Shown: positions 48,722-57,181 of the stretch, one piece after another
Layout: the number at the start of each line of letters is the position of its first letter
How positions within the stretch are numbered: the first letter of the stretch is position 1
NCBI GenBank assembly: GCA_964642165.1
Contig: CAZXOC010000002.1
Location: forward strand, 21,241-78,421
Direction of reading: 5' to 3'
From: an uncultured Planctomycetaceae bacterium
GTDB taxonomy: Bacteria; Planctomycetota; Phycisphaerae; SM23-33
Length of the DNA stretch: 57,181 nt
Translations under genes and position numbers: made by a program
The notes under the pieces: generated by a model
Seen by the model: the letters and a program-made list of their open reading frames with translations, nothing else
Told to the model about the DNA's origin: nothing
Database searches by the model: none

Positions 48722-49702
48722 TCAGCGGACCTCGGCAAGGACGGTGGCCCGAGCGGCGGGCAGGCGGGTCCGGCTGCCGTCGTCGAGGCACAGGACCAGA
48801 CCCTCCAACGGGTCGACGTCGAGGACGCGCCCGCTGTGACGCCGCCCGTCGCACAGGACGGTCAGTCGCTGGTTGACCATGCGGCAGCGGGCGAGGAAGC
48901 CGGCGTGCAGCTCGTCGAGCCGCCCGGCGGCGACGCGCGCGACCCACGCGTCGAGGCGCCCCAGCAGCGCCCGGACGATCGCGATCCGGTCGGCCGGGTG
49001 CGCCAGGTGGTCCGCCAGGCAGGTCGCGCGCCGGTCGACCTCGTCGGCCGGCGGGGCGCGGTTGGCGTTGATGCCCACCCCCAGCACGACGCCGAGCGTC
49101 TCGCCCTCGCGGCGCATCTCCACCAGCACGCCCGCCACCTTGGCACCGTCCAGCAGCACGTCGTTGGGCCACTTCAGCTCGCAGGGCAGTCCCGCGGCCT
49201 CCTCGATCGCCTCGGCCGTCGCCAGCCCCGTGGCGATCGTCAGCGCCTCGTGCGGCGGCGCGCGCCGCCCGGCCGGCTCGATCAGCAGCGCGCTGAGCAG
49301 GACGTTCTGGTGCGGCGAGCTGACCCACGCCCGCCCCCGGCGGCCGCGACCGCGAGACTGGGCCTCCGCCACCACGACCAGCCCGTCGGCGCCTTCCTGG
49401 CGGATCGCCTCGAGCGCCACGTCGTTCGTCGAGCCGACGACCTCGAAGCACAGCACGCTGCGCCCCACGCGCCGCTCCGGCAGCCCGCGCTCGATCAGGT
49501 GCGGCGAAAGCGGCACAGGCGGCAGCAGCCGAACGCCGTCGGGCGGCGAGTACTCCAGCCGGTACCAGCTCCCGAACATGGCGTCCAGCTCGCGCTCCAG
49601 GTCCGCCGGCGCCACGCCGACCGCCGCCGCCAGCTCCTCCAGCGCGACGTAGCCTTCCCGGCGGTCGTAGAGCACTTCCAGGATGCGGTCCGACGTCTTC
49701 AT
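48722..49702 (-). CDS. birA: Biotin-[acetyl-CoA-carboxylase] ligase with N-terminal HTH
   Basis: ATG at 49702 overlaps the nadC stop; STND, AEAQSRGRGRRGRAW, KWPND, KVAGVL, GVGIN. Confidence 0.94.
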   Translation of the reverse strand: MKTSDRILEVLYDRREGYVALEELAAAVGVAPADLERELDAMFGSWYRLEYSPPDGVRLLPPVPLSPHLIERGLPERRVGRSVLCFEVVGSTNDVALEAIRQEGADGLVVVAEAQSRGRGRRGRAWVSSPHQNVLLSALLIEPAGRRAPPHEALTIATGLATAEAIEEAAGLPCELKWPNDVLLDGAKVAGVLVEMRREGETLGVVLGVGINANRAPPADEVDRRATCLADHLAHPADRIAIVRALLGRLDAWVARVAAGRLDELHAGFLARCRMVNQRLTVLCDGRRHSGRVLDVDPLEGLVLCLDDGSRTRLPAARATVLAEVR

Positions 49703-50595
49703 CCCGCGTCCACGTCCAGGGCGATGTCGGCGGCCGGAACCGAGTGCGTCAGGGCGCCCACCGAGATGCGCTCGACGCCCGCCTCGGCCACGGCGCGAAC
49801 GTTGCGGAGCGTGATGCCGCCCGAGGCCTCCAGGGCGACGCGCCCGCGCAGGCCGGCGGCGTCGCGCCGCGCGACCGCCCGGCGAAGCTCCTCCGGCGGC
49901 ATGTTGTCCAGCAGGACCACGTCCACCGGCAGGCGCAGCGCCGCGTCGAGCTGCCCCAGGCGGTCCACCTCCACCTCGACGAAGCCCTCCGGGCCGAGCG
50001 CCCTTCGCGCCTCGGCCAGCCGCCCGCCCAGCGCGGCGAGGGGGTCCGCCTCGCCCGACCGCGCCAGCACGCCGAGGTGGTTGTCCTTCACCAGGACGGC
50101 GTCGTAGAGCCCTCGGCGGTGGTTCCGCCCGCCGCCCGCGCGGACGGCGTACTTCTCCAGGTCGCGCCAGCCGGGCGTCGTCTTGCGCGTGTCCAGGATG
50201 GCCGCCGCCGTGCCGCGCACGGCCTCGACGTAGCGCGCGGTCATCGTGGCGATGCCGCTGAGGCGCTGGAGGAAGTTGAGCGCCACGCGTTCGGCCGACA
50301 GCACCGCGCGCGCCGGGCCGGACCACGCCGCCAGGACGGAGCCCGCCGCGACGCTCCGGCCGTCGGGCACCTCCACGTTCGTGGCGATGCGAGCGTCGTA
50401 GGCCTCGGCGACGGGGTGCAGGAAGAGCCCCCCGCAGAAGACCAGCTCCCGGCGGGCGACGAATCGCCCGCGGGCCTCGAGCCCCTCCGGCAGCAGCGCG
50501 GCGGTCACGTCGCCGCCGCCGAGGTCCTCCGCCCGCGCCAGCTCGAGCAGACGCTGGAGATTGTCCAGCTCGCGTTTCCCCGCCGAAAGCGCCAT
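49699..50595 (-). CDS. nadC: Nicotinate-nucleotide pyrophosphorylase (carboxylating)
   Basis: AEDLGGGDVT, AERVALNFLQRLSGIAT, DTRKTTPGWR, LVKDNH, EVEVD, LLDNM, EASGGI, ISVGALTHS. Confidence 0.96.
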   Translation of the reverse strand: MALSAGKRELDNLQRLLELARAEDLGGGDVTAALLPEGLEARGRFVARRELVFCGGLFLHPVAEAYDARIATNVEVPDGRSVAAGSVLAAWSGPARAVLSAERVALNFLQRLSGIATMTARYVEAVRGTAAAILDTRKTTPGWRDLEKYAVRAGGGRNHRRGLYDAVLVKDNHLGVLARSGEADPLAALGGRLAEARRALGPEGFVEVEVDRLGQLDAALRLPVDVVLLDNMPPEELRRAVARRDAAGLRGRVALEASGGITLRNVRAVAEAGVERISVGALTHSVPAADIALDVDAG

Positions 50596-50675
50596 GCGCC
50601 GAGGATACCGCAAAAGCCCTCGACCGCCAAGCCGGTGCCCCACGCCCGCGCCGCCGTCCGCGCGGGGCCGCCGCC

Positions 50676-51932
50676 TCACGGCATCAGGCCCACGCACCGA
50701 AGCTCGCGCTCGTCGCGCAGGAACAGCTTGCCGTCCACGTAGGCCGGGTGGCACCAGTTCTGCCCGCACACGCGGGTCCGGCCGATCACGCGGCAGCGCT
50801 TCGGGTCCGCGGCCACGAGCAGTAGCTGGCCCCTCTCGGCGAGCACGAGGATGCGGTCCTTCATCACGACGAACGACGCGTAGCCCCGCCCCACCATGCC
50901 GGAGAAGAACCCCTTCTCGACCCAGGCCTCCTTGCCGGTCCGCACGTCGACGCAGAAGAGGCTCTTGCCCGGCCCGAGCCCGTAGACGTGACTGCCGACG
51001 GCCACCGGATTCATGAAGTTGACCGCCAGGGCCTTGGACAGCCACGCGCGCTCGGCGCGGAACGCCTCGCCCTCCTTGGAGATCCGGACGCCGATCAGCC
51101 CGGCGAGGTACGAGGAGACCACCACCGTGTCGTCCACGACGACCGGCGTGATCACGTGCCGCCCCAGCCTCGTCTTCACCGGCGCGCGCCACAGCAGCTT
51201 GCCGTCGCGCACGTCGAGGCCGATGACCGCCTCCGCCGTGAACGAGACCACCTGCTTGACGCCCAAGATCGTGGCGACGACGGCCCCGCCGTGGCCCTGC
51301 ACGTCGTTCTGGGACTTCCAGATGACCTTCCCGCTGCGCTTGTCGAGGCAGACGACGCTCGCGCCCTTCCTGCCGCCGGCGGCAACGATCACACGATCGC
51401 CGTCGATCACCGCCGAACCGGAGTTGCCGTGGCGGTCGGCCCCCGCGGCCGAGCCCCTCTCGCCGATGAAGACCGCCCCGAAGTCCTTCACGAAGTTGAC
51501 GCGCCAGATCTCCTTGCCGTCGGCGACGCGGAGGCAGCGGAACTCGCCGCGGCACGACTGCACGTAGACGCGCTCGCCGTCGACCAGCGGCGTGCAGCGC
51601 GGGCCGGGCGGCGAGTGGCCGTCCCGGAACGTGTCGTCCAGCGGCGCGCTCCAGAGCTCCTTGCCCGAGGCGGCGTCGACGGCGTGCACCACCTCCTTGC
51701 CCTGCTGGTTGTCGAGGTGGAACAGCCGCCCGCCGCTGACGACCGGCGAGGCCAGGCCGTGGCCGACCCTCTCCCGCCAGAGAGCCTTCGGCTCGGCCGG
51801 CAGCGTCTGCGGCACGGCGACGCCGGCCGGGACGTGCCCCGTGCCGTCGGGCCCGCGCCACCGAGGCCAGTCCGCCGCCAGGCACCACGTGCCGAGCACG
51901 AGCATCGAACCGATCAGAATGCTGCGCTTCAT
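50676..51932 (-). CDS. Secreted PQQ-binding-like beta-propeller protein
   Basis: Signal peptide then DWPRWRGPDGTG; repeated AVDAASGKELW / CLDKRSGKVIW; WCHPAYVDGKLFLR. Confidence 0.9.
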   Translation of the reverse strand: MKRSILIGSMLVLGTWCLAADWPRWRGPDGTGHVPAGVAVPQTLPAEPKALWRERVGHGLASPVVSGGRLFHLDNQQGKEVVHAVDAASGKELWSAPLDDTFRDGHSPPGPRCTPLVDGERVYVQSCRGEFRCLRVADGKEIWRVNFVKDFGAVFIGERGSAAGADRHGNSGSAVIDGDRVIVAAGGRKGASVVCLDKRSGKVIWKSQNDVQGHGGAVVATILGVKQVVSFTAEAVIGLDVRDGKLLWRAPVKTRLGRHVITPVVVDDTVVVSSYLAGLIGVRISKEGEAFRAERAWLSKALAVNFMNPVAVGSHVYGLGPGKSLFCVDVRTGKEAWVEKGFFSGMVGRGYASFVVMKDRILVLAERGQLLLVAADPKRCRVIGRTRVCGQNWCHPAYVDGKLFLRDERELRCVGLMP

Positions 51933-51989
51933 GTCTCGGATACCTCCCGGAAAAACCGCGCTGGACCCTCGTCAAGAGCCGCTGGGGTC

Positions 51990-52017
51990 AGTCTACCATA
52001 CTCGTATGCTCGGACAA
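51990..52017 (-). promoter_or_regulatory. Putative promoter of the PQQ-nadC-birA unit, with a spacer palindrome
   Basis: Minus strand TTGTCC-N16-TAGACT (TGn-extended); CATAC-tc-GTATG palindrome at 51997-52008. Confidence 0.45.
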
Positions 52018-52151
52018 GGCAGGGCTGCACGTTCGCGCGGGAAGGAGGCGAGTCCACCGGCGTGCGGCGACGGCGCGGCCGGCGGTGTTGCATCGCACCG
52101 GGGCGGCGAGTGTAGAATCGCCCGTCCGGAGCGCAGATGAGGAGCCCCGAC

Positions 52152-53765
52152 ATGATGACCGACTCGCATCGACGTGCCCGGTTGCACCGGGCGACGGCCC
52201 GAATCCCGGGCTGGGCGACAGTGACGATCTGCCTGGCGGGCGCCGCGGCGGCCCTCGCCGAGCCGGCCGCGCCGAAGCCGCTCGACAGCGGCATCCGCCC
52301 CGGCGAGGTCGAGAAACGCCGCTACCTCGACTACGCGCGCGAGTGCATCGACGTGCTCATCGCCCGCGGCACGGACCGCTACGGCACGGTCCACTCCCCG
52401 ATGCTGATGAGCATCCTCGACGTCCGCAGCCGGGACTGCCCCGCCGACCCCCCGCGGCTCGACGAGGCCTGGCGCGTGACCCGGCGCGGGCGGCGCAACC
52501 CCGGCGGCGGGAACCTCTATCACGACCAGGCCACCCTTGCAGCGATGTGCGAGTTGACCCGGCTGACCGCCCAGCCGCGCTACGCCGAGTTCGCACGCCG
52601 CTGCGCGAATCACACGATGACGAAGCTGGTGGACGAGCGCGGGCTCTTCTGGTGGGGCTACCACCGCCACTACGACGCCCACCGGGACGTGAAGACGGGC
52701 CACAGCGGCAACCACCACGAGATCCACATCCAGCAGATCGCCTGGGGCGTGCTGTGGCGGGCGAACCCGGCGGCCGTCCGGCGCGAGATCGAGGCCATCT
52801 GGCGGTGGCACGTGATCGACAAGAAGACCGGCGAGGTCAACCGCCACGCGGACGGCCGCCGCGGGTGCGACTTCGCCATGAGCGCGGGAGAGATCCTGCT
52901 GGCCTTCGCGTTCCTGCACACGAAGACGCCCCCCGCCGAGAGCCCCTGGCTGGACCGGGCGCGCCTCGTGGCCGGCTGGCACGCGCGGCACCGGCACCCG
53001 AAGACAGGGCTCATCCCCAACCGCCCCAACGCCGGGGCCGGACGCTTCGACGGGGCGCACTTCGACACGTCGATCACGGGCCTGTACTGCGTGCGGCTGC
53101 TGGAGGCCCACGAGCTGACCGGCGAGGCGTCCTTTCGCGACCAGGCCGTGGGATACCTCCAGGCCTACGCGCATTACGGCTGGGACGCCGCGGCCGGGCA
53201 GTTCTGGGGCAGCCTGAAGCTGGACGGCACGCCCGTGCCCGGCCCGAGGACCACGGGCGGCTACCAGGCCTACGAGCCGCGGGGGCACGTGGACCTCTGG
53301 CAGCCGTACATCGCCGGCTACGAGCACCCCCTGGCCACCGCCCAGGCGTATGCCTACGCGGCGGAGCGGACGGGCAGCGCGACGCTGCTGGCGGCGGCCC
53401 GGAAGTGGGCCGCGTGCATCCGGGCGGCCTTCCCGCCGCGCCGCGCCCTCACGAAGAGCTGGTATGCCGGCTACGCCAGCCACTACGCCCCGCACGGCAC
53501 GCACGCGGGCAACTACGGGCGGGTGATCTCCTTCTTCCTGCACCTGGGGCGGCTGACGGGGGAGACGGCGCAGGTGGACTTCGCGCGGGCCGTCGCTCGC
53601 GAGGCCGTCGCTAAGCTGTACTACCGTGGGCTGTTGCGCGGCCACCCCGCCAAGGCGTACTACGAGGCGGCCGACGACGTCGCCCTGCTGCTCCGGGCGC
53701 TGATCCAGTTGGACCAGACCCTCACCGGCCCGGACAAGGCAAAGGTGTCCTGCAAGAACTGGTGA
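52152..53765 (+). CDS. Secreted alpha/alpha-toroid protein, divergent polysaccharide lyase family 2 (PL2)-like
   Basis: GAGGAG RBS; signal peptide; GLFWWGYHR, HHEIH, AIWRWHVID, NRH and RHPKTGL match PL2 motifs as I recall them. Confidence 0.7.
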   Translation: MMTDSHRRARLHRATARIPGWATVTICLAGAAAALAEPAAPKPLDSGIRPGEVEKRRYLDYARECIDVLIARGTDRYGTVHSPMLMSILDVRSRDCPADPPRLDEAWRVTRRGRRNPGGGNLYHDQATLAAMCELTRLTAQPRYAEFARRCANHTMTKLVDERGLFWWGYHRHYDAHRDVKTGHSGNHHEIHIQQIAWGVLWRANPAAVRREIEAIWRWHVIDKKTGEVNRHADGRRGCDFAMSAGEILLAFAFLHTKTPPAESPWLDRARLVAGWHARHRHPKTGLIPNRPNAGAGRFDGAHFDTSITGLYCVRLLEAHELTGEASFRDQAVGYLQAYAHYGWDAAAGQFWGSLKLDGTPVPGPRTTGGYQAYEPRGHVDLWQPYIAGYEHPLATAQAYAYAAERTGSATLLAAARKWAACIRAAFPPRRALTKSWYAGYASHYAPHGTHAGNYGRVISFFLHLGRLTGETAQVDFARAVAREAVAKLYYRGLLRGHPAKAYYEAADDVALLLRALIQLDQTLTGPDKAKVSCKNW

Positions 53766-53779
53766 CCGCCAGCCTGGTT

Positions 53780-53843
53780 GGGGTGTATACCCCCCCCGCC
53801 GGTACAGGTCCTCATGGCTTGGATTCGAGGGTATACCCGGCGG
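53780..53843. promoter_or_regulatory. GTATAC-centred palindromes with a C-tract (possible operator or RNA stem)
   Basis: GGGGTGTATACCCCCCCC at 53780; perfect GGGTATACCC at 53829-53838; CCGCCGG...CCGGCGG inverted pair. Confidence 0.3.
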
Positions 53844-53920
53844 CGAATGCAGGGGCTTCCCGACGCCGCACGTACGTCCTTCACCGGCAGCTGATTGTCC
53901 GAACCTTGAGGAATGCTCGC

Positions 53921-54010
53921 AAACTAATAGAGTTATAACATGCCTTTTGACAAAGATTTATGAGATTAAACCGTTTGTGTCAACATGGATAAAAGTTGAC
54001 ACAATCAATC
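53921..54010. promoter_or_regulatory. AT-rich island with a perfect 10-10-10 inverted repeat
   Basis: 27 G+C in 90 nt (30%, counted by hand); TTGTGTCAAC-N10-GTTGACACAA at 53975-54004; palindromic GTTATAAC at 53932-53939, giving an extended -10 TG-T-TATAAC on the minus strand. Confidence 0.6.
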
Positions 54011-54058
54011 ACATCGCCGGTTTCGGCCGCGGAGGCGGCTGCGCCGAGGCGGCGGACG

Positions 54059-54175
54059 TCACGGCGTCAGGCGGCTGCGGTCGCGAGGGAACAGGCACGC
54101 CTCCTTGATGCTCGCCAGGTCCAGCATCTGCATCGTCAGGCGCTCCAGGCCCATGCCCATCCCGCCGTGAAGCGG
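54059..54175 (-). pseudogene. aspS: 3'-terminal relic (38 codons) of an archaeal-type / non-discriminating aspartyl-tRNA synthetase
   Basis: PLHGGMGMGLERLTMQMLDLASIKEACLFPRDRSRLTP-stop is class II motif 3 plus the FPRDxxRLxP terminus; no start codon or upstream synthetase sequence. Confidence 0.85.
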
Positions 54176-54213
54176 CTCGGTCGAGGCGATGGGGGCGACG
54201 CCCGCGGCGCGGC

Positions 54214-56013
54214 TCAGAAGACGTGCCGGCGGAAGCGCCGCGCGGCGCGCCAGAGCAGCAGCACGCCCACCAGGACGTGGACCACGCTGTAGGCCAGGAC
54301 CGCGCCGGCGTGCCGCAGGACATCGCCGCCCCGCGGCGCGCCTGCCCCAACCGGGCCGTCCCGCCAGCCTGCGGGCGCGTCCTCGGACGCCGCCGCCCGG
54401 ACGATGTCGCTCACCTGCACGAAGGGACTGACCCGGTAGACCGCCCGGGCGGGAGCGGCGGGCAGGTCCCAGGCGCGCCCCAGGGCGCCCGCCGCCAGCG
54501 CGACGACCGACGGCAGGACCACCCACAGCCCTGCCGCTATGGCCGCCGTGACCGTCGCGGCCACGGTGGTCCGGCGGAAGCGAGCGCTGACGTGCAGGCC
54601 CAGGCCCGCCACAAAGACCGCCACGCCCACCAGCAGGATGGCCAGGTTCCACCCCGCGACGGGGTGGAGCCTGCCGACCAGGACAGAGACCACCGCGTGG
54701 ACGCCGAACGCCCCGGCGGCGGGGGCCGCCCGCCAGAAGACGGCGTGCAGCTTGGCGGCCAGGATCTGCCCGTCCGTCAGCGGCGTCGCCAGCAGCAGCG
54801 GCCAGCAGCCCGACTCCTTCTCCGACGTGATCGCCGTCGCCGACATCGCCGCCAGCAGCAGGCAGGTCACCAGCAGGGCCGCGCCCAGCACGAACGTGTG
54901 GAACGCCGCCGAGTGGAGCCAGCGGAACGACGCGGCCAGGAAATAGCAGTACCCCAGCAGGATCCCGGCGACGCCGAAGGCGATCTTGGGGTCCCTCATC
55001 AGGCTGCCCCGCATCGTCCGCCAGACGATCGGCGAGCCGGAGACCACCAGGGGCATGGCACCCGGATGGCGGCCCCTGGACGCGGCCTTGTGGAACGCCC
55101 GGACCGCGCGGCGGAGCTCCGGGGGCACGTCCTTCTGGTCGGGCGGCTCGCAGGGCACGGAGGGCAGGTAGACGTAGTCCGGCCGCCCGGCGCGGCGGGG
55201 GCGATCCGGGTCGTTGCCGAGGGACCGCAGCGCCGCCAGCCGGAAGACGCGGACGCACCGGGCCAGCACGGCCGCCATCGCCAGCAGCGCCACGGCGCAC
55301 ACCACCGGCCAGGCGGCCGGCCACGCGCCGCCCCCGCCCCGCAGCATGGTCCCCGTGGACTGGGCCAGCCATAGGCCGGCGGGGAGGGCGGCGATCGCCG
55401 TGGCGGCCAGCGAGGCCAGGATGGTCTTGTACGGCCTGACGTAGACGGCCGAGTAGAGCATGGTGACCGCCCCGGCGAAGCCCGAGAAGGCCAGGATGGC
55501 CAGCACGCCGCCGAGGACGTAGGCCCACGGCACGCCGCCGAAGACCCGCGCGATGGCCAGCACCGGGAGCGTCGCGAGGATCAGCACGGCCAGTTGGAGC
55601 ATGCGGCTGAGGAACTTGCCCACGACGATGTTCTCGAACGTCAAGGGCGTGCTCATCAGCGGCGCGAGCGTCCTGCCGCGCAGCTCGTCGCCGAAGGCGT
55701 TGCTCATCAGCAGGATCGCCGCCAGCGGGGCCGCCACGAAGACGAACCAGATGATCCGGCAGGCGACCTCCTTGCCCGCCTCGGCCATGCGCGAGATCGT
55801 GAACGCCTCGCCGCGGTCGCCTATCCCCTCCCCCACGGCCGCCCAGACGAGCACCGCGAAGAGCGTCAACGCCCCGAGGTAGGCCAGACGCAGCACGTAC
55901 GTTCGCCGCCGCCGGCTGTTGATCCGCAGCTCCAGGCCGGCGACGCAGCGCCCCGAGCGGACCGCGCCGGCCAGGTCCCGCAGGGATCGCCACCATGTCT
56001 TGCGGTCGAGCAA
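54214..56013 (-). CDS. ABC-2-type transporter permease with internal duplication
   Basis: ELRINSRRRRTYVLRLAY; two repeats, DELRGRTLAPLMSTPL and SEKESGCWPLLLATPL; many TM segments. TTG start at 56013 is tentative. Confidence 0.8.
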   Translation of the reverse strand: MLDRKTWWRSLRDLAGAVRSGRCVAGLELRINSRRRRTYVLRLAYLGALTLFAVLVWAAVGEGIGDRGEAFTISRMAEAGKEVACRIIWFVFVAAPLAAILLMSNAFGDELRGRTLAPLMSTPLTFENIVVGKFLSRMLQLAVLILATLPVLAIARVFGGVPWAYVLGGVLAILAFSGFAGAVTMLYSAVYVRPYKTILASLAATAIAALPAGLWLAQSTGTMLRGGGGAWPAAWPVVCAVALLAMAAVLARCVRVFRLAALRSLGNDPDRPRRAGRPDYVYLPSVPCEPPDQKDVPPELRRAVRAFHKAASRGRHPGAMPLVVSGSPIVWRTMRGSLMRDPKIAFGVAGILLGYCYFLAASFRWLHSAAFHTFVLGAALLVTCLLLAAMSATAITSEKESGCWPLLLATPLTDGQILAAKLHAVFWRAAPAAGAFGVHAVVSVLVGRLHPVAGWNLAILLVGVAVFVAGLGLHVSARFRRTTVAATVTAAIAAGLWVVLPSVVALAAGALGRAWDLPAAPARAVYRVSPFVQVSDIVRAAASEDAPAGWRDGPVGAGAPRGGDVLRHAGAVLAYSVVHVLVGVLLLWRAARRFRRHVF

Positions 56014-56048
56014 ACGCTCCCCTCGCCGTAGCACGTCCCACCCGGACC

Positions 56049-56121
56049 AGCATACCCGACGCCTCCGGCAGGGCAAGGCCTGCCGGGGCGATTGCCCGTC
56101 GGCACGCGCCGCCGGTATACT
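56049..56121. promoter_or_regulatory. Back-to-back divergent sigma70-type promoters
   Basis: Minus: TTGCCC-N16-TATGCT (56076-56049). Plus: TTGCCC-N18-TATACT (56092-56121). Confidence 0.5.
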
Positions 56122-56150
56122 CGCCGCCCAAGCACGATCAGGAGACACCG

Positions 56151-57181
56151 ATGTCGCTCGAAGACGGCATGGCCGCCATGAACCTCCAGATGCCCCCGCG
56201 CGTGCCGCGGACGGAGTACTCCGCGGCCGGGCACTGGGCCCTGCTGCGGCGCGTGACGGGCATCGACGTCGCCCACGACTCGCCCGGCGACGTCAAGCGG
56301 CGGGCGCAGCGGGCCTTCGTGGCCGCCTGGCGCTTCGACATCTGGTGGTCCACACTCATTGGACGCGGTGAGTTCGGCGCCATTCGAACGAAGATGGGGC
56401 ACTGCGTCTACGCCGACGGCGGCGTGGATTTCGACGAGGAGCGCGGCAGCTTCTTCTCCGAGCCCGAGGAGGTCCTCGCCTTCGACCCGTGGGAGGCCTT
56501 CGGCCAGATCGACAAGCTCGCCACCACGAAACGCTTCGAGGACCACTACCAGGCGAGCTGCCGCAGCTTCCCGGACATGGTCCACATGACGGGCATCTAC
56601 GTCACGTGCGTCTCCGGGCTGATCGACCTGTTCGGCTGGGAGCTGCTCCTGCTGGCGGCCGGGGTGGACCGCCGGGCCTTCGGCGACCTCACCAACCGCT
56701 ACGCCTCCTGGGTCCTCCAGTACCACGAGGCCCTCGCCGACGCCGACGTGCCCGTCGTGATGAGCCACGACGACATCGTCTGGACGGCCGGGCCCTTCCT
56801 CCCGCCGGAGTGGTACCGCCAGTACGTCTTCCCCAACTACACGCGCTTCTACCGTCCCCTCATCGACAGCGGCAAGAAGATCCTCTACACCTCCGACGGC
56901 AACTACACGGAGTTCCTGGACGACATCGCCGCCTGCGGCGTGCACGGTTTCGTGCTGGAGCCGATGACGGACATGGCCCAGATCGCCGAGCGGTACGGCC
57001 GCACGCACGTGTTCATCGGCAACGCCGACACGCGCGTCCTGCTGCTGGGCACGAAGGCCGACATCCGCGCCGAGGTCGAGCGGTGCATGGCCATCGGCAA
57101 GGGCTGCCCGGGCTTCTTCCTGGCCGTCGGCAACCACATCCCCCCCAACACGCCCGTGGACAACTGCCTCTACTACAACGA
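56151..57181 (+). CDS. Uroporphyrinogen decarboxylase (URO-D / MtaA-CmuA-like) family protein, 3' end beyond the window
   Basis: My translation from ATG 56151 (AGGAG RBS): MSLEDGMAAMNLQMPPRVPRTEYS...SHDDIVWTAGPFLPPEWYRQYVFP...LYTSDGNY...FIGNADT...AEVERCM...GFFLAVGNHIPPNTP. Confidence 0.85.
   Translation, partial: MSLEDGMAAMNLQMPPRVPRTEYSAAGHWALLRRVTGIDVAHDSPGDVKRRAQRAFVAAWRFDIWWSTLIGRGEFGAIRTKMGHCVYADGGVDFDEERGSFFSEPEEVLAFDPWEAFGQIDKLATTKRFEDHYQASCRSFPDMVHMTGIYVTCVSGLIDLFGWELLLLAAGVDRRAFGDLTNRYASWVLQYHEALADADVPVVMSHDDIVWTAGPFLPPEWYRQYVFPNYTRFYRPLIDSGKKILYTSDGNYTEFLDDIAACGVHGFVLEPMTDMAQIAERYGRTHVFIGNADTRVLLLGTKADIRAEVERCMAIGKGCPGFFLAVGNHIPPNTPVDNCLYYN

Follow-up and report, generated by a model that had tools for sequence, protein, structure and literature searches.

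A stranded 38-codon 3' end of an archaeal-type aspartyl-tRNA synthetase gene next to an ABC-2 permease gene in a planctomycete genome

The DNA analyzed here is a stretch of 57,181 nucleotides from the genome of an uncultured Planctomycetaceae bacterium, which we refer to as the window. The part of it that concerns us extends from nadC to a URO-D-like gene and contains, in order of increasing coordinates, the features given below (L075 and L076 are loci of relatives, L078 is a sister contig).

49699 to 50595, minus strand: nadC (quinolinate phosphoribosyltransferase), from the gene tables of L075 and L078 and tblastx collinearity
50676 to 51932, minus strand: PQQ beta-propeller gene (Pfam PF13360), the last gene of the lineage-specific permease-nadC segment
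52137 to 53765, plus strand: PL2-like lyase gene (Pfam PF06917), converging on the aspS relic
53891 to 54007 (to about 54022), plus strand: one AT-rich copy of a roughly 120-nt dispersed repeat, a 30% GC island, from copies found by blast and nhmmer
54008 to 54058, minus strand: probable aspS 3' flank after the stop codon of the relic, 51 nt, holding the 14-mer CGGCCGAAACCGGC (54016-54029)
54059 to 54175, minus strand: aspS relic of the archaeal, non-discriminating type, corresponding to residues 395-432 in the enzyme of 432 aa, with a TGA stop
54170 to 54172, minus strand: codon CTT (Leu) replacing the invariant second Pro of motif 3 (alignment A2)
54176 to 54213, minus strand: spacer from the permease stop to the first relic codon, 38 nt, identical in all six assemblies
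54214 to 56148, minus strand: ABC-2 family permease gene (Pfam PF12679 and related families)
56151 to 57181, plus strand: URO-D-like gene, divergent from the permease gene (Pfam PF01208; gene tables of L075, L076, and L078)

The permease open reading frame encodes 644 amino acids from a GTG at 56148, while gene callers place the start at 56013, giving a protein of 599 amino acids. The PL2 stop and the AT-rich repeat are separated by 125 nt of unique sequence, in which a palindromic GGGGTGTATACCCC and a partial repeat GAGGGTATACCCGG (53790-53850) were noticed; the palindromic motif may be the PL2 terminator. A direct repeat (D8; 53859-53911 and 55884-55936, 72%) was judged to be a chance match. 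Promoter, terminator, and Rfam scans over the relic region found nothing, and the window holds no tRNA genes, which were looked for as alternative att sites.

Translation of the minus strand from 54175 to 54059 gave PLHGGMGMGLERLTMQMLDLASIKEACLFPRDRSRLTP followed by TGA, that is, 38 codons and a stop, which span motif 3 (PPHGGMGMGLERL) through FPRDRSRLTP. When the translation was extended to cover 54059-54235, the residues found in frame before the relic (...AAGVAPIASTE) were without similarity to synthetases, and a search with three full-length homologues revealed no further synthetase-like piece in the window or in the genome. Translation and homologue searches thus confirmed the coordinates of the original prediction, made from the nucleotide letters and their open reading frames, which had described 38 codons and a stop, beginning 38 nt after the end of the permease gene and preceded by no synthetase-like sequence. 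The best model for the peptide was NCBIfam NF003483, aspartate--tRNA(Asn) ligase, matched at positions 401-438 of 438 with 53 bits (E 2.6e-14); TIGR00458 gave 44.5 bits, and the models of bacterial AspRS, AsnRS, and LysRS, like those of all other class IIb families, gave at most 24.5 bits. Pfam PF00152 was matched at positions 275-307 of 308 (E 5e-9), and comparison with 5.8 billion proteins yielded an E value of 1e-11. The NF003483 and PF00152 matches agree with the earlier reading of the peptide as motif 3 plus the C terminus of an archaeal-type/non-discriminating AspRS, and also answer its question of whether the peptide would hit the C termini of class II AspRS/AsnRS. By sequence, then, the relic is assigned to the C terminus of AspRS of the archaeal/eukaryal genre. 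Its 38 codons score far below the equivalog cut-off of NF003483 (53 vs 353 bits) and do not comprise the full AspRS architecture, which consists of an N-terminal OB anticodon-binding domain (PF01336) and a catalytic core with motifs 1 and 2. It is a gene fragment and not a member gene of the aspartate--tRNA(Asn) ligase family.

For the protein search, the relic region was set inside a longer frame, so that full-length proteins became eligible among the 5.8 billion sequences. The nearest proteins were 432 amino acids long, were composed of PF01336 and PF00152, and shared 84-87% identity with the relic over its 38 residues; several of them bear the name non-discriminating aspartyl-tRNA synthetase. 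In a collection of species-representative genomes, the nearest full-length genes came from metagenome-assembled genomes (MAGs) labelled Phycisphaerae, and the tail of one of them (L096) was 87% identical to the relic. The closest intact homologue, P0003, scores above both equivalog cut-offs for aspartate--tRNA(Asn) ligase, and its tail is identical to the relic at 87% of amino acids and 84.6% of nucleotides, with 12 of the 18 nucleotide differences falling at third codon positions. The family names, together with the linkage of aspS, gatC, and gatA in another homologue locus (L251), lead us to predict that the intact homologues are non-discriminating, i.e. act on both tRNA-Asp and tRNA-Asn. 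The gene neighbourhood of P0011 looks archaeal, with TrmB and AsnC-type regulators and an asparaginase-domain gene, and gave no information on the relic.

The GC content at third codon positions (GC3) is 0.92 in the relic and 0.94-0.96 in neighbouring host genes, and the relic frame contains neither a frameshift nor an internal stop. The GC3 value, the preference of differences for third positions, and the open frame show that, until recently, the relic was evolving as a coding sequence within a genome of high GC. For a pseudogene fragment, it is unusually clean and young.

A chimeric assembly join at this position was the objection that the original prediction itself had raised. We therefore looked at members from other samples in the 90%-identity cluster of the permease, and found the same junction in five independently assembled contigs (L078-L082). 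In all five the gene order is URO-D, permease, relic, AT-rich stretch, PL2 lyase, PQQ propeller, nadC, and birA. The names of L078-L081 give coverages between 57x and 8x, the JGI contig L082 carries no coverage figure, and L078 reaches 96 kb. Over 495 nt around the relic, the sister assemblies are 98.8-100% identical to each other. A chimera is ruled out by these five independent assemblies with an identical junction, and both the relic and its junction are fixed in the species. In alignment A1, homology to aspS begins exactly at the first CCG codon, with none upstream, which puts the breakpoint of the proposed deletion or rearrangement at the 3' edge of the spacer (54176-54213).

The second codon of motif 3 differs among the assemblies. 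L078-L081 read CCG CCC CAC (PPH), whereas this genome and L082 read CCG CTT CAC (PLH), so that PLH results from a CC-to-TT change at 54170-54171 that is polymorphic within the species (two of the six assemblies). A tandem CC-to-TT double substitution is a classic UV-type signature; in the relic it is one event and proves nothing about its cause. The change of PPH to PLH had originally been taken as a sign of decay or of a junction, and the four assemblies that keep PPH place it within the species. The change of an invariant motif-3 proline in some strains is what would be expected of a relic no longer under synthetase selection. We read PLH as decay following inactivation, in agreement with the original interpretation; as a single event, it is weak evidence of relaxed selection.

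The arrangement on both sides of the relic was compared with that in relatives. The pair of URO-D and permease genes is conserved in L075 and L076, and L077 also pairs them. L075, whose permease is 52% identical, contains URO-D, the permease, a 166-aa open reading frame, nadC, and birA, and is collinear with the window on both sides, with collinearity among relatives resuming at nadC. In L076, the permease is followed by a DJ-1/PfpI gene. In a genome of the same genus (G001), the permease has been lost and URO-D abuts nadC, while the PL2 and PQQ orthologues reside on two other contigs among different neighbours, and the gene converging on PL2 is there an oxidoreductase and not aspS. L075 lacks about 3.6 kb that separates the end of the permease gene from nadC in the window and comprises the relic, its short flank, the AT-rich element, PL2, and PQQ. 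The interval from permease to nadC (window 50596-54213; L075 3493-4218; G001 locus L021) is consequently a small rearrangement hot spot with the relic at its edge. No aspS was found at the URO-D/permease/nadC locus in L075, L076, or G001; as G001 has lost the permease too, its synteny says nothing about aspS.

The comparison of synteny that had been proposed at the outset gave, therefore, a divided answer: none of these three loci holds aspS, yet in L047, the contig that carries P0003, aspS does adjoin an orthologue of the permease, lying upstream of it. L047 is only 1.8 kb long and its wider context falls outside it. The permease-like gene starts 132 nt after the aspS stop, and its N terminus is orthologous to the window permease: its best match in the genome is the gene on the window's contig C2 (63% over 49 residues), the paralogues on contigs C33 and C379 reach 41-45%, and it matches the L075 and L076 orthologues as well. 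The order is thus aspS and then permease in L047, and permease and then relic in the window. Since aspS and this permease adjoin each other in two lineages, for which we estimate a chance probability of about 1 in 1000, the relic is more plausibly of local origin than imported. The opposite gene order, in turn, implies at least one extra local rearrangement in one of the lineages, so that a single deletion in place cannot by itself explain both arrangements.

The 14-mer CGGCCGAAACCGGC found just past the relic is unique in the 8-Mb genome and also occurs downstream of the aspS stop in L047, in the spacer between aspS and the permease. Local alignment of the 3' flank of the relic with this spacer gave a score of 28, compared with 16.2 +/- 2.2 for 300 shuffles. 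We consider that the 51 nt after the relic are probably native aspS 3' flank, a weakly supported assignment, as part of them may belong to the adjoining repeat. A different type of aspS locus, found in L018 and L044, was rejected as the source of the relic. There, a transglutaminase-like gene or a 308-aa gene precedes aspS, and contig C457 of the genome under study (G000) has both of these genes and then, directly, a xylose-isomerase-like gene, without a relic.

The AT-rich stretch that adjoins the flank is one copy of a repeat with conserved ends, CTGATTGTCCGA ... GTGTCAAC-N10-GTTGACACAATCA (the right end can also be given as TTTGTGTCAAC-N10-GTTGACACAATCA), and a variable, AT-rich middle. The genome contains 21 copies detectable by blast and 37-43 detectable by nhmmer. 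The termini of the repeat form an inverted match of 7 nt (TGATTGT), and a hairpin (z = -3.8) occupies a subterminal position; many copies sit within 70-280 nt of the edge of a contig, often with the right end turned towards a converging gene's 3' end. Searches of the genomes G001, G019, G623, and G035 did not find the repeat, Rfam gave no match, and neither a target-site duplication nor a parent transposase was recognised. The genes beside its copies, read by eye, are ordinary genes for secreted proteins, together with one ImmA-like and one NYN-like open reading frame. In its sequence properties, the repeat behaves like a species-specific MITE- or REP-like element and not like an orphan operator. 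It resembles such elements in being short, intergenic, and present in about 40 copies with conserved ends, an inverted match, and a hairpin, and differs from them in that no target-site duplication or parent transposase could be identified here. Its copy number and its absence from the sister species suggest that it is mobile; that it contributed to the rearrangement at the relic locus would be speculation.

The genome encodes LysRS (contig C369), AsnRS (C183), which scores above the equivalog cut-off, and one bacterial-type AspRS, which is split over C183 and C73 with overlapping halves. GlnRS, an AsnB-like gene, GatB, and GatC are also present, the Asp/Asn/Gln set being distributed over contigs C183, C73, C483, and C30, and C183 contains aspS, gatB, gatC, and asnS within 13 kb. 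With bacterial AspRS and AsnRS retained, along with GlnRS and GatB/GatC, a second AspRS would have been dispensable. A GlnRS-tail match on contig C144 (17796-17954, minus strand) was entertained as a second relic and rejected, as it proved to be a gene cut by the contig end. This GlnRS-like 3' end is about 70% identical to the tail of the C483 GlnRS and could belong to a paralogue or to binned contamination.

Outside this species, searches of the genus, the family, and 400 sampled genomes of the class found no intact archaeal-type aspS. The intact gene is kept in some MAGs labelled Phycisphaerae and in other families of the phylum. A genome with 50% GC from another family of the class (G035) contains an independent relic from the same AspRS clade, a tail of 25 codons that ends in ...LTEILGLANIKEACLFPRERYRLTP and a stop (C8:22408-22479; L008 1501-1575, minus strand), located between a lipoprotein gene and pilT and antisense to both. 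As the survey used the tail as its query, it addresses tail relics only. Taken together, the archaeal-type aspS appears to be patchily distributed and repeatedly lost.

Three intact homologues are preceded by truncated T-box-like leaders, all of which score under the Rfam gathering threshold. The strongest of them occupies positions 1-264 of L250 (76.9 bits, E 5e-16) and falls short of the threshold because the contig cuts off its 5' end, and weaker matches lie at positions 1-79 of L047 and 1-61 of L248. These three contigs are unlabelled, and some members of the aspS clade come from MAGs labelled Phycisphaerae. On these matches, genes of this aspS clade are probably preceded by T-box leaders. 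No T-box was found in the genome G000 or in the window, in keeping with the lack of an intact copy there. To our knowledge, T-boxes have been little reported in Planctomycetota, and we know of no T-box reported for the archaeal-type aspS genes of Deinococcus-Thermus.

Two origins had been proposed for the relic from the start: the displaced 3' end of an aspS gene into which an element had integrated, so that the relic would mark an island boundary, or the scar of a lost second AspRS gene. Integration in the manner of e14 and icd, with the relic on the attR side, would account for the geometry, in which a clean 3' end keeps its stop and borders on unrelated DNA upstream, and one may add the mobile-looking repeat 51 nt downstream of the relic and the contig end 3 kb away. 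Such an event predicts partners that the searches did not recover. In tblastn searches with the tail and three full-length homologues, the tail was single-copy in the assembly (8.0 Mb, 669 contigs, 87% complete), so that no attL/attR pair is seen, and no full-length archaeal-type aspS was present in it. Repeats flanking the relic region, searched as att evidence, gave a negative result. None of the eleven genome matches to the tyrosine integrase family PF00589, the one recombinase family searched, lies on the 78-kb contig C2. The sister contig L078 runs 10 kb beyond URO-D, and this extension contains ordinary genes, none of them called as integrase- or aspS-like. The DNA upstream of the relic is, moreover, old chromosomal context, as the permease and URO-D genes are shared with L075 and L076 and the flanks are collinear with L075, and the sampled genomes of the phylum with an intact aspS and a similar tail have one matching tail each. 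The island-boundary model is thus not supported on any of these points, and we regard it as the least probable of the explanations considered. The second proposal fits all the results.

A more serious alternative, though still an unlikely one, is that the relic marks a rearrangement junction. This could have come about by tandem duplication of a unit composed of the aspS tail and the permease followed by random loss, or by insertion of a block (aspS tail, repeat, PL2, and PQQ) cut from another locus with one breakpoint inside aspS; the two versions share this low probability. Loss of the outer copies of a duplicated unit would leave the permease and then the aspS tail, and the orders in L047 and in the window are indeed circular permutations of the same two units. 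The block version draws on the position of the relic at the edge of the lineage-specific 3.6-kb segment with the repeat, PL2, and PQQ, with which it could have arrived, since that segment is absent at the locus in L075 and G001 and its PL2 and PQQ genes are on separate contigs in G001. The recurrence of the 14-mer from the L047 aspS-permease spacer just past the relic would suit either version. On the other side, there is no second copy of the permease and no other piece of aspS in the window or genome, conservation of the URO-D/permease pair in three lineages means that a full duplication and loss would need several extra events, the gene that converges on PL2 in G001 is an oxidoreductase and not aspS, and the L047 evidence comes from 1.8 kb. 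The narrower proposal that the relic is a preserved intermediate of a swap in aspS/permease order, by tandem duplication and random loss, seems to us doubtful and, if anything, slightly less likely than the rearrangement junction in general.

Retention of the relic for a function, either as the 3' UTR/terminator of the permease or as a micro-protein of 31-33 codons (MGMGLERL...LTP), is very unlikely. Gene callers do call a 31-aa open reading frame here in all the sister assemblies, the frame is intact, and the region downstream folds well (hairpin z = -3.8). However, the terminator scan found nothing, the strong hairpin is part of the dispersed repeat and not of the relic, and open frames are expected by chance in DNA of 74% GC, where the same frame stays open for 690 codons. 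In addition, the relic is not conserved in other sampled genomes of the genus, family, or class, and its invariant residue is already mutated in some strains. Still less credible is a foreign scrap of aspS, acquired by illegitimate recombination in a lineage where the gene was never intact. The lack of an intact archaeal-type aspS in the same genus, family, and 400 class genomes sampled would be in its favour, but with a GC3 as close to that of the host as 0.92, the donor would need to have had a similar composition, and it would be a coincidence of roughly 1 in 1000 that the nearest intact aspS is linked to the orthologous permease.

We favour, with a probability of roughly 0.7, the view that the relic is what remains, without function, of a second AspRS gene which once stood intact beside the permease gene and was cut by a deletion or rearrangement. 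A recent ancestor would have possessed an intact aspartate--tRNA(Asn) ligase gene of the 432-aa form adjoining that of the ABC-2 permease. The leader and some 394 codons from the start of the gene would then have been deleted, either directly or after a local rearrangement, and the first proline codon of motif 3 would thereby have been joined to a point 38 nt beyond the end of the permease gene. What stayed behind would be the final 38 codons with their stop and some 50 nt of 3' flank. The bacterial-type AspRS and AsnRS would have made this loss tolerable, and the remnant, having become fixed in the species, would now be drifting, as the CC-to-TT change at the invariant proline suggests. That the gene was once intact at the window locus, and that a single deletion made the scar, are the two steps of this account that we infer. 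Counting against deletion in place is the fact that L075 and L076 keep the URO-D/permease/nadC frame without aspS in it. With the assembly 87% complete, an intact copy might, in addition, lie in the missing part of the genome.

The relic can be compared with three known situations. In Deinococcus and Thermus, a second, archaeal-type AspRS supplies GatCAB for the synthesis of Asn on tRNA, and the enzyme set present here has been discussed for these two and for Bdellovibrio (PMC4206432). This AspRS2, known from Deinococcus radiodurans and Thermus thermophilus, belongs to the same family as the relic (NF003483/TIGR00458) and occurs against the same background set of bacterial AspRS, AsnRS, GlnRS, and GatB/GatC (PMC4206432). 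The planctomycete differs from them in that it keeps only the last 38 codons, the enzyme being absent, and a further difference lies in the truncated, sub-gathering T-box-like leaders on three intact relatives of the relic. The second situation is pseudo-icd' (163 bp), made by integration of e14 or phage 21 into the 3' end of E. coli icd, which resembles the relic as a stranded in-frame 3' end with its own stop and unrelated DNA upstream (PMC6379469). In contrast to the relic locus, which has none of these, e14 comes with a prophage-completed icd, an integrase, and attL and attR copies. Finally, the relic shares with pseudogene fragments derived by deletion the lack of a start, a promoter, and most domains, a function that is covered elsewhere, and the first neutral decay; it is unusual among them in being so clean and young and is tied to a difference in gene order with the nearest relative that keeps the gene.

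The relic is therefore ordinary in kind, leaves the understanding of gene remnants unchanged, and has beside it an AT-rich island that is explained as one copy of a species-specific repeat. Its value is that of a modest dated fossil, recording that a planctomycete lineage, probably Phycisphaerae judging from the labels of the nearest homologues, recently dropped a second, archaeal-type AspRS while keeping AsnRS, GlnRS, and GatB/GatC. If the swap by duplication and loss were true, it would be a rare bacterial case with a readable footprint, and it would date the loss of the tRNA-dependent asparagine route in a lineage that still keeps GatB/GatC with GlnRS and AsnRS. After the loss of the archaeal-type AspRS, the bacterial AspRS of this organism may be non-discriminating, as is that of Bdellovibrio (PMC4206432), or else its GatCAB may now be redundant or on its way out.
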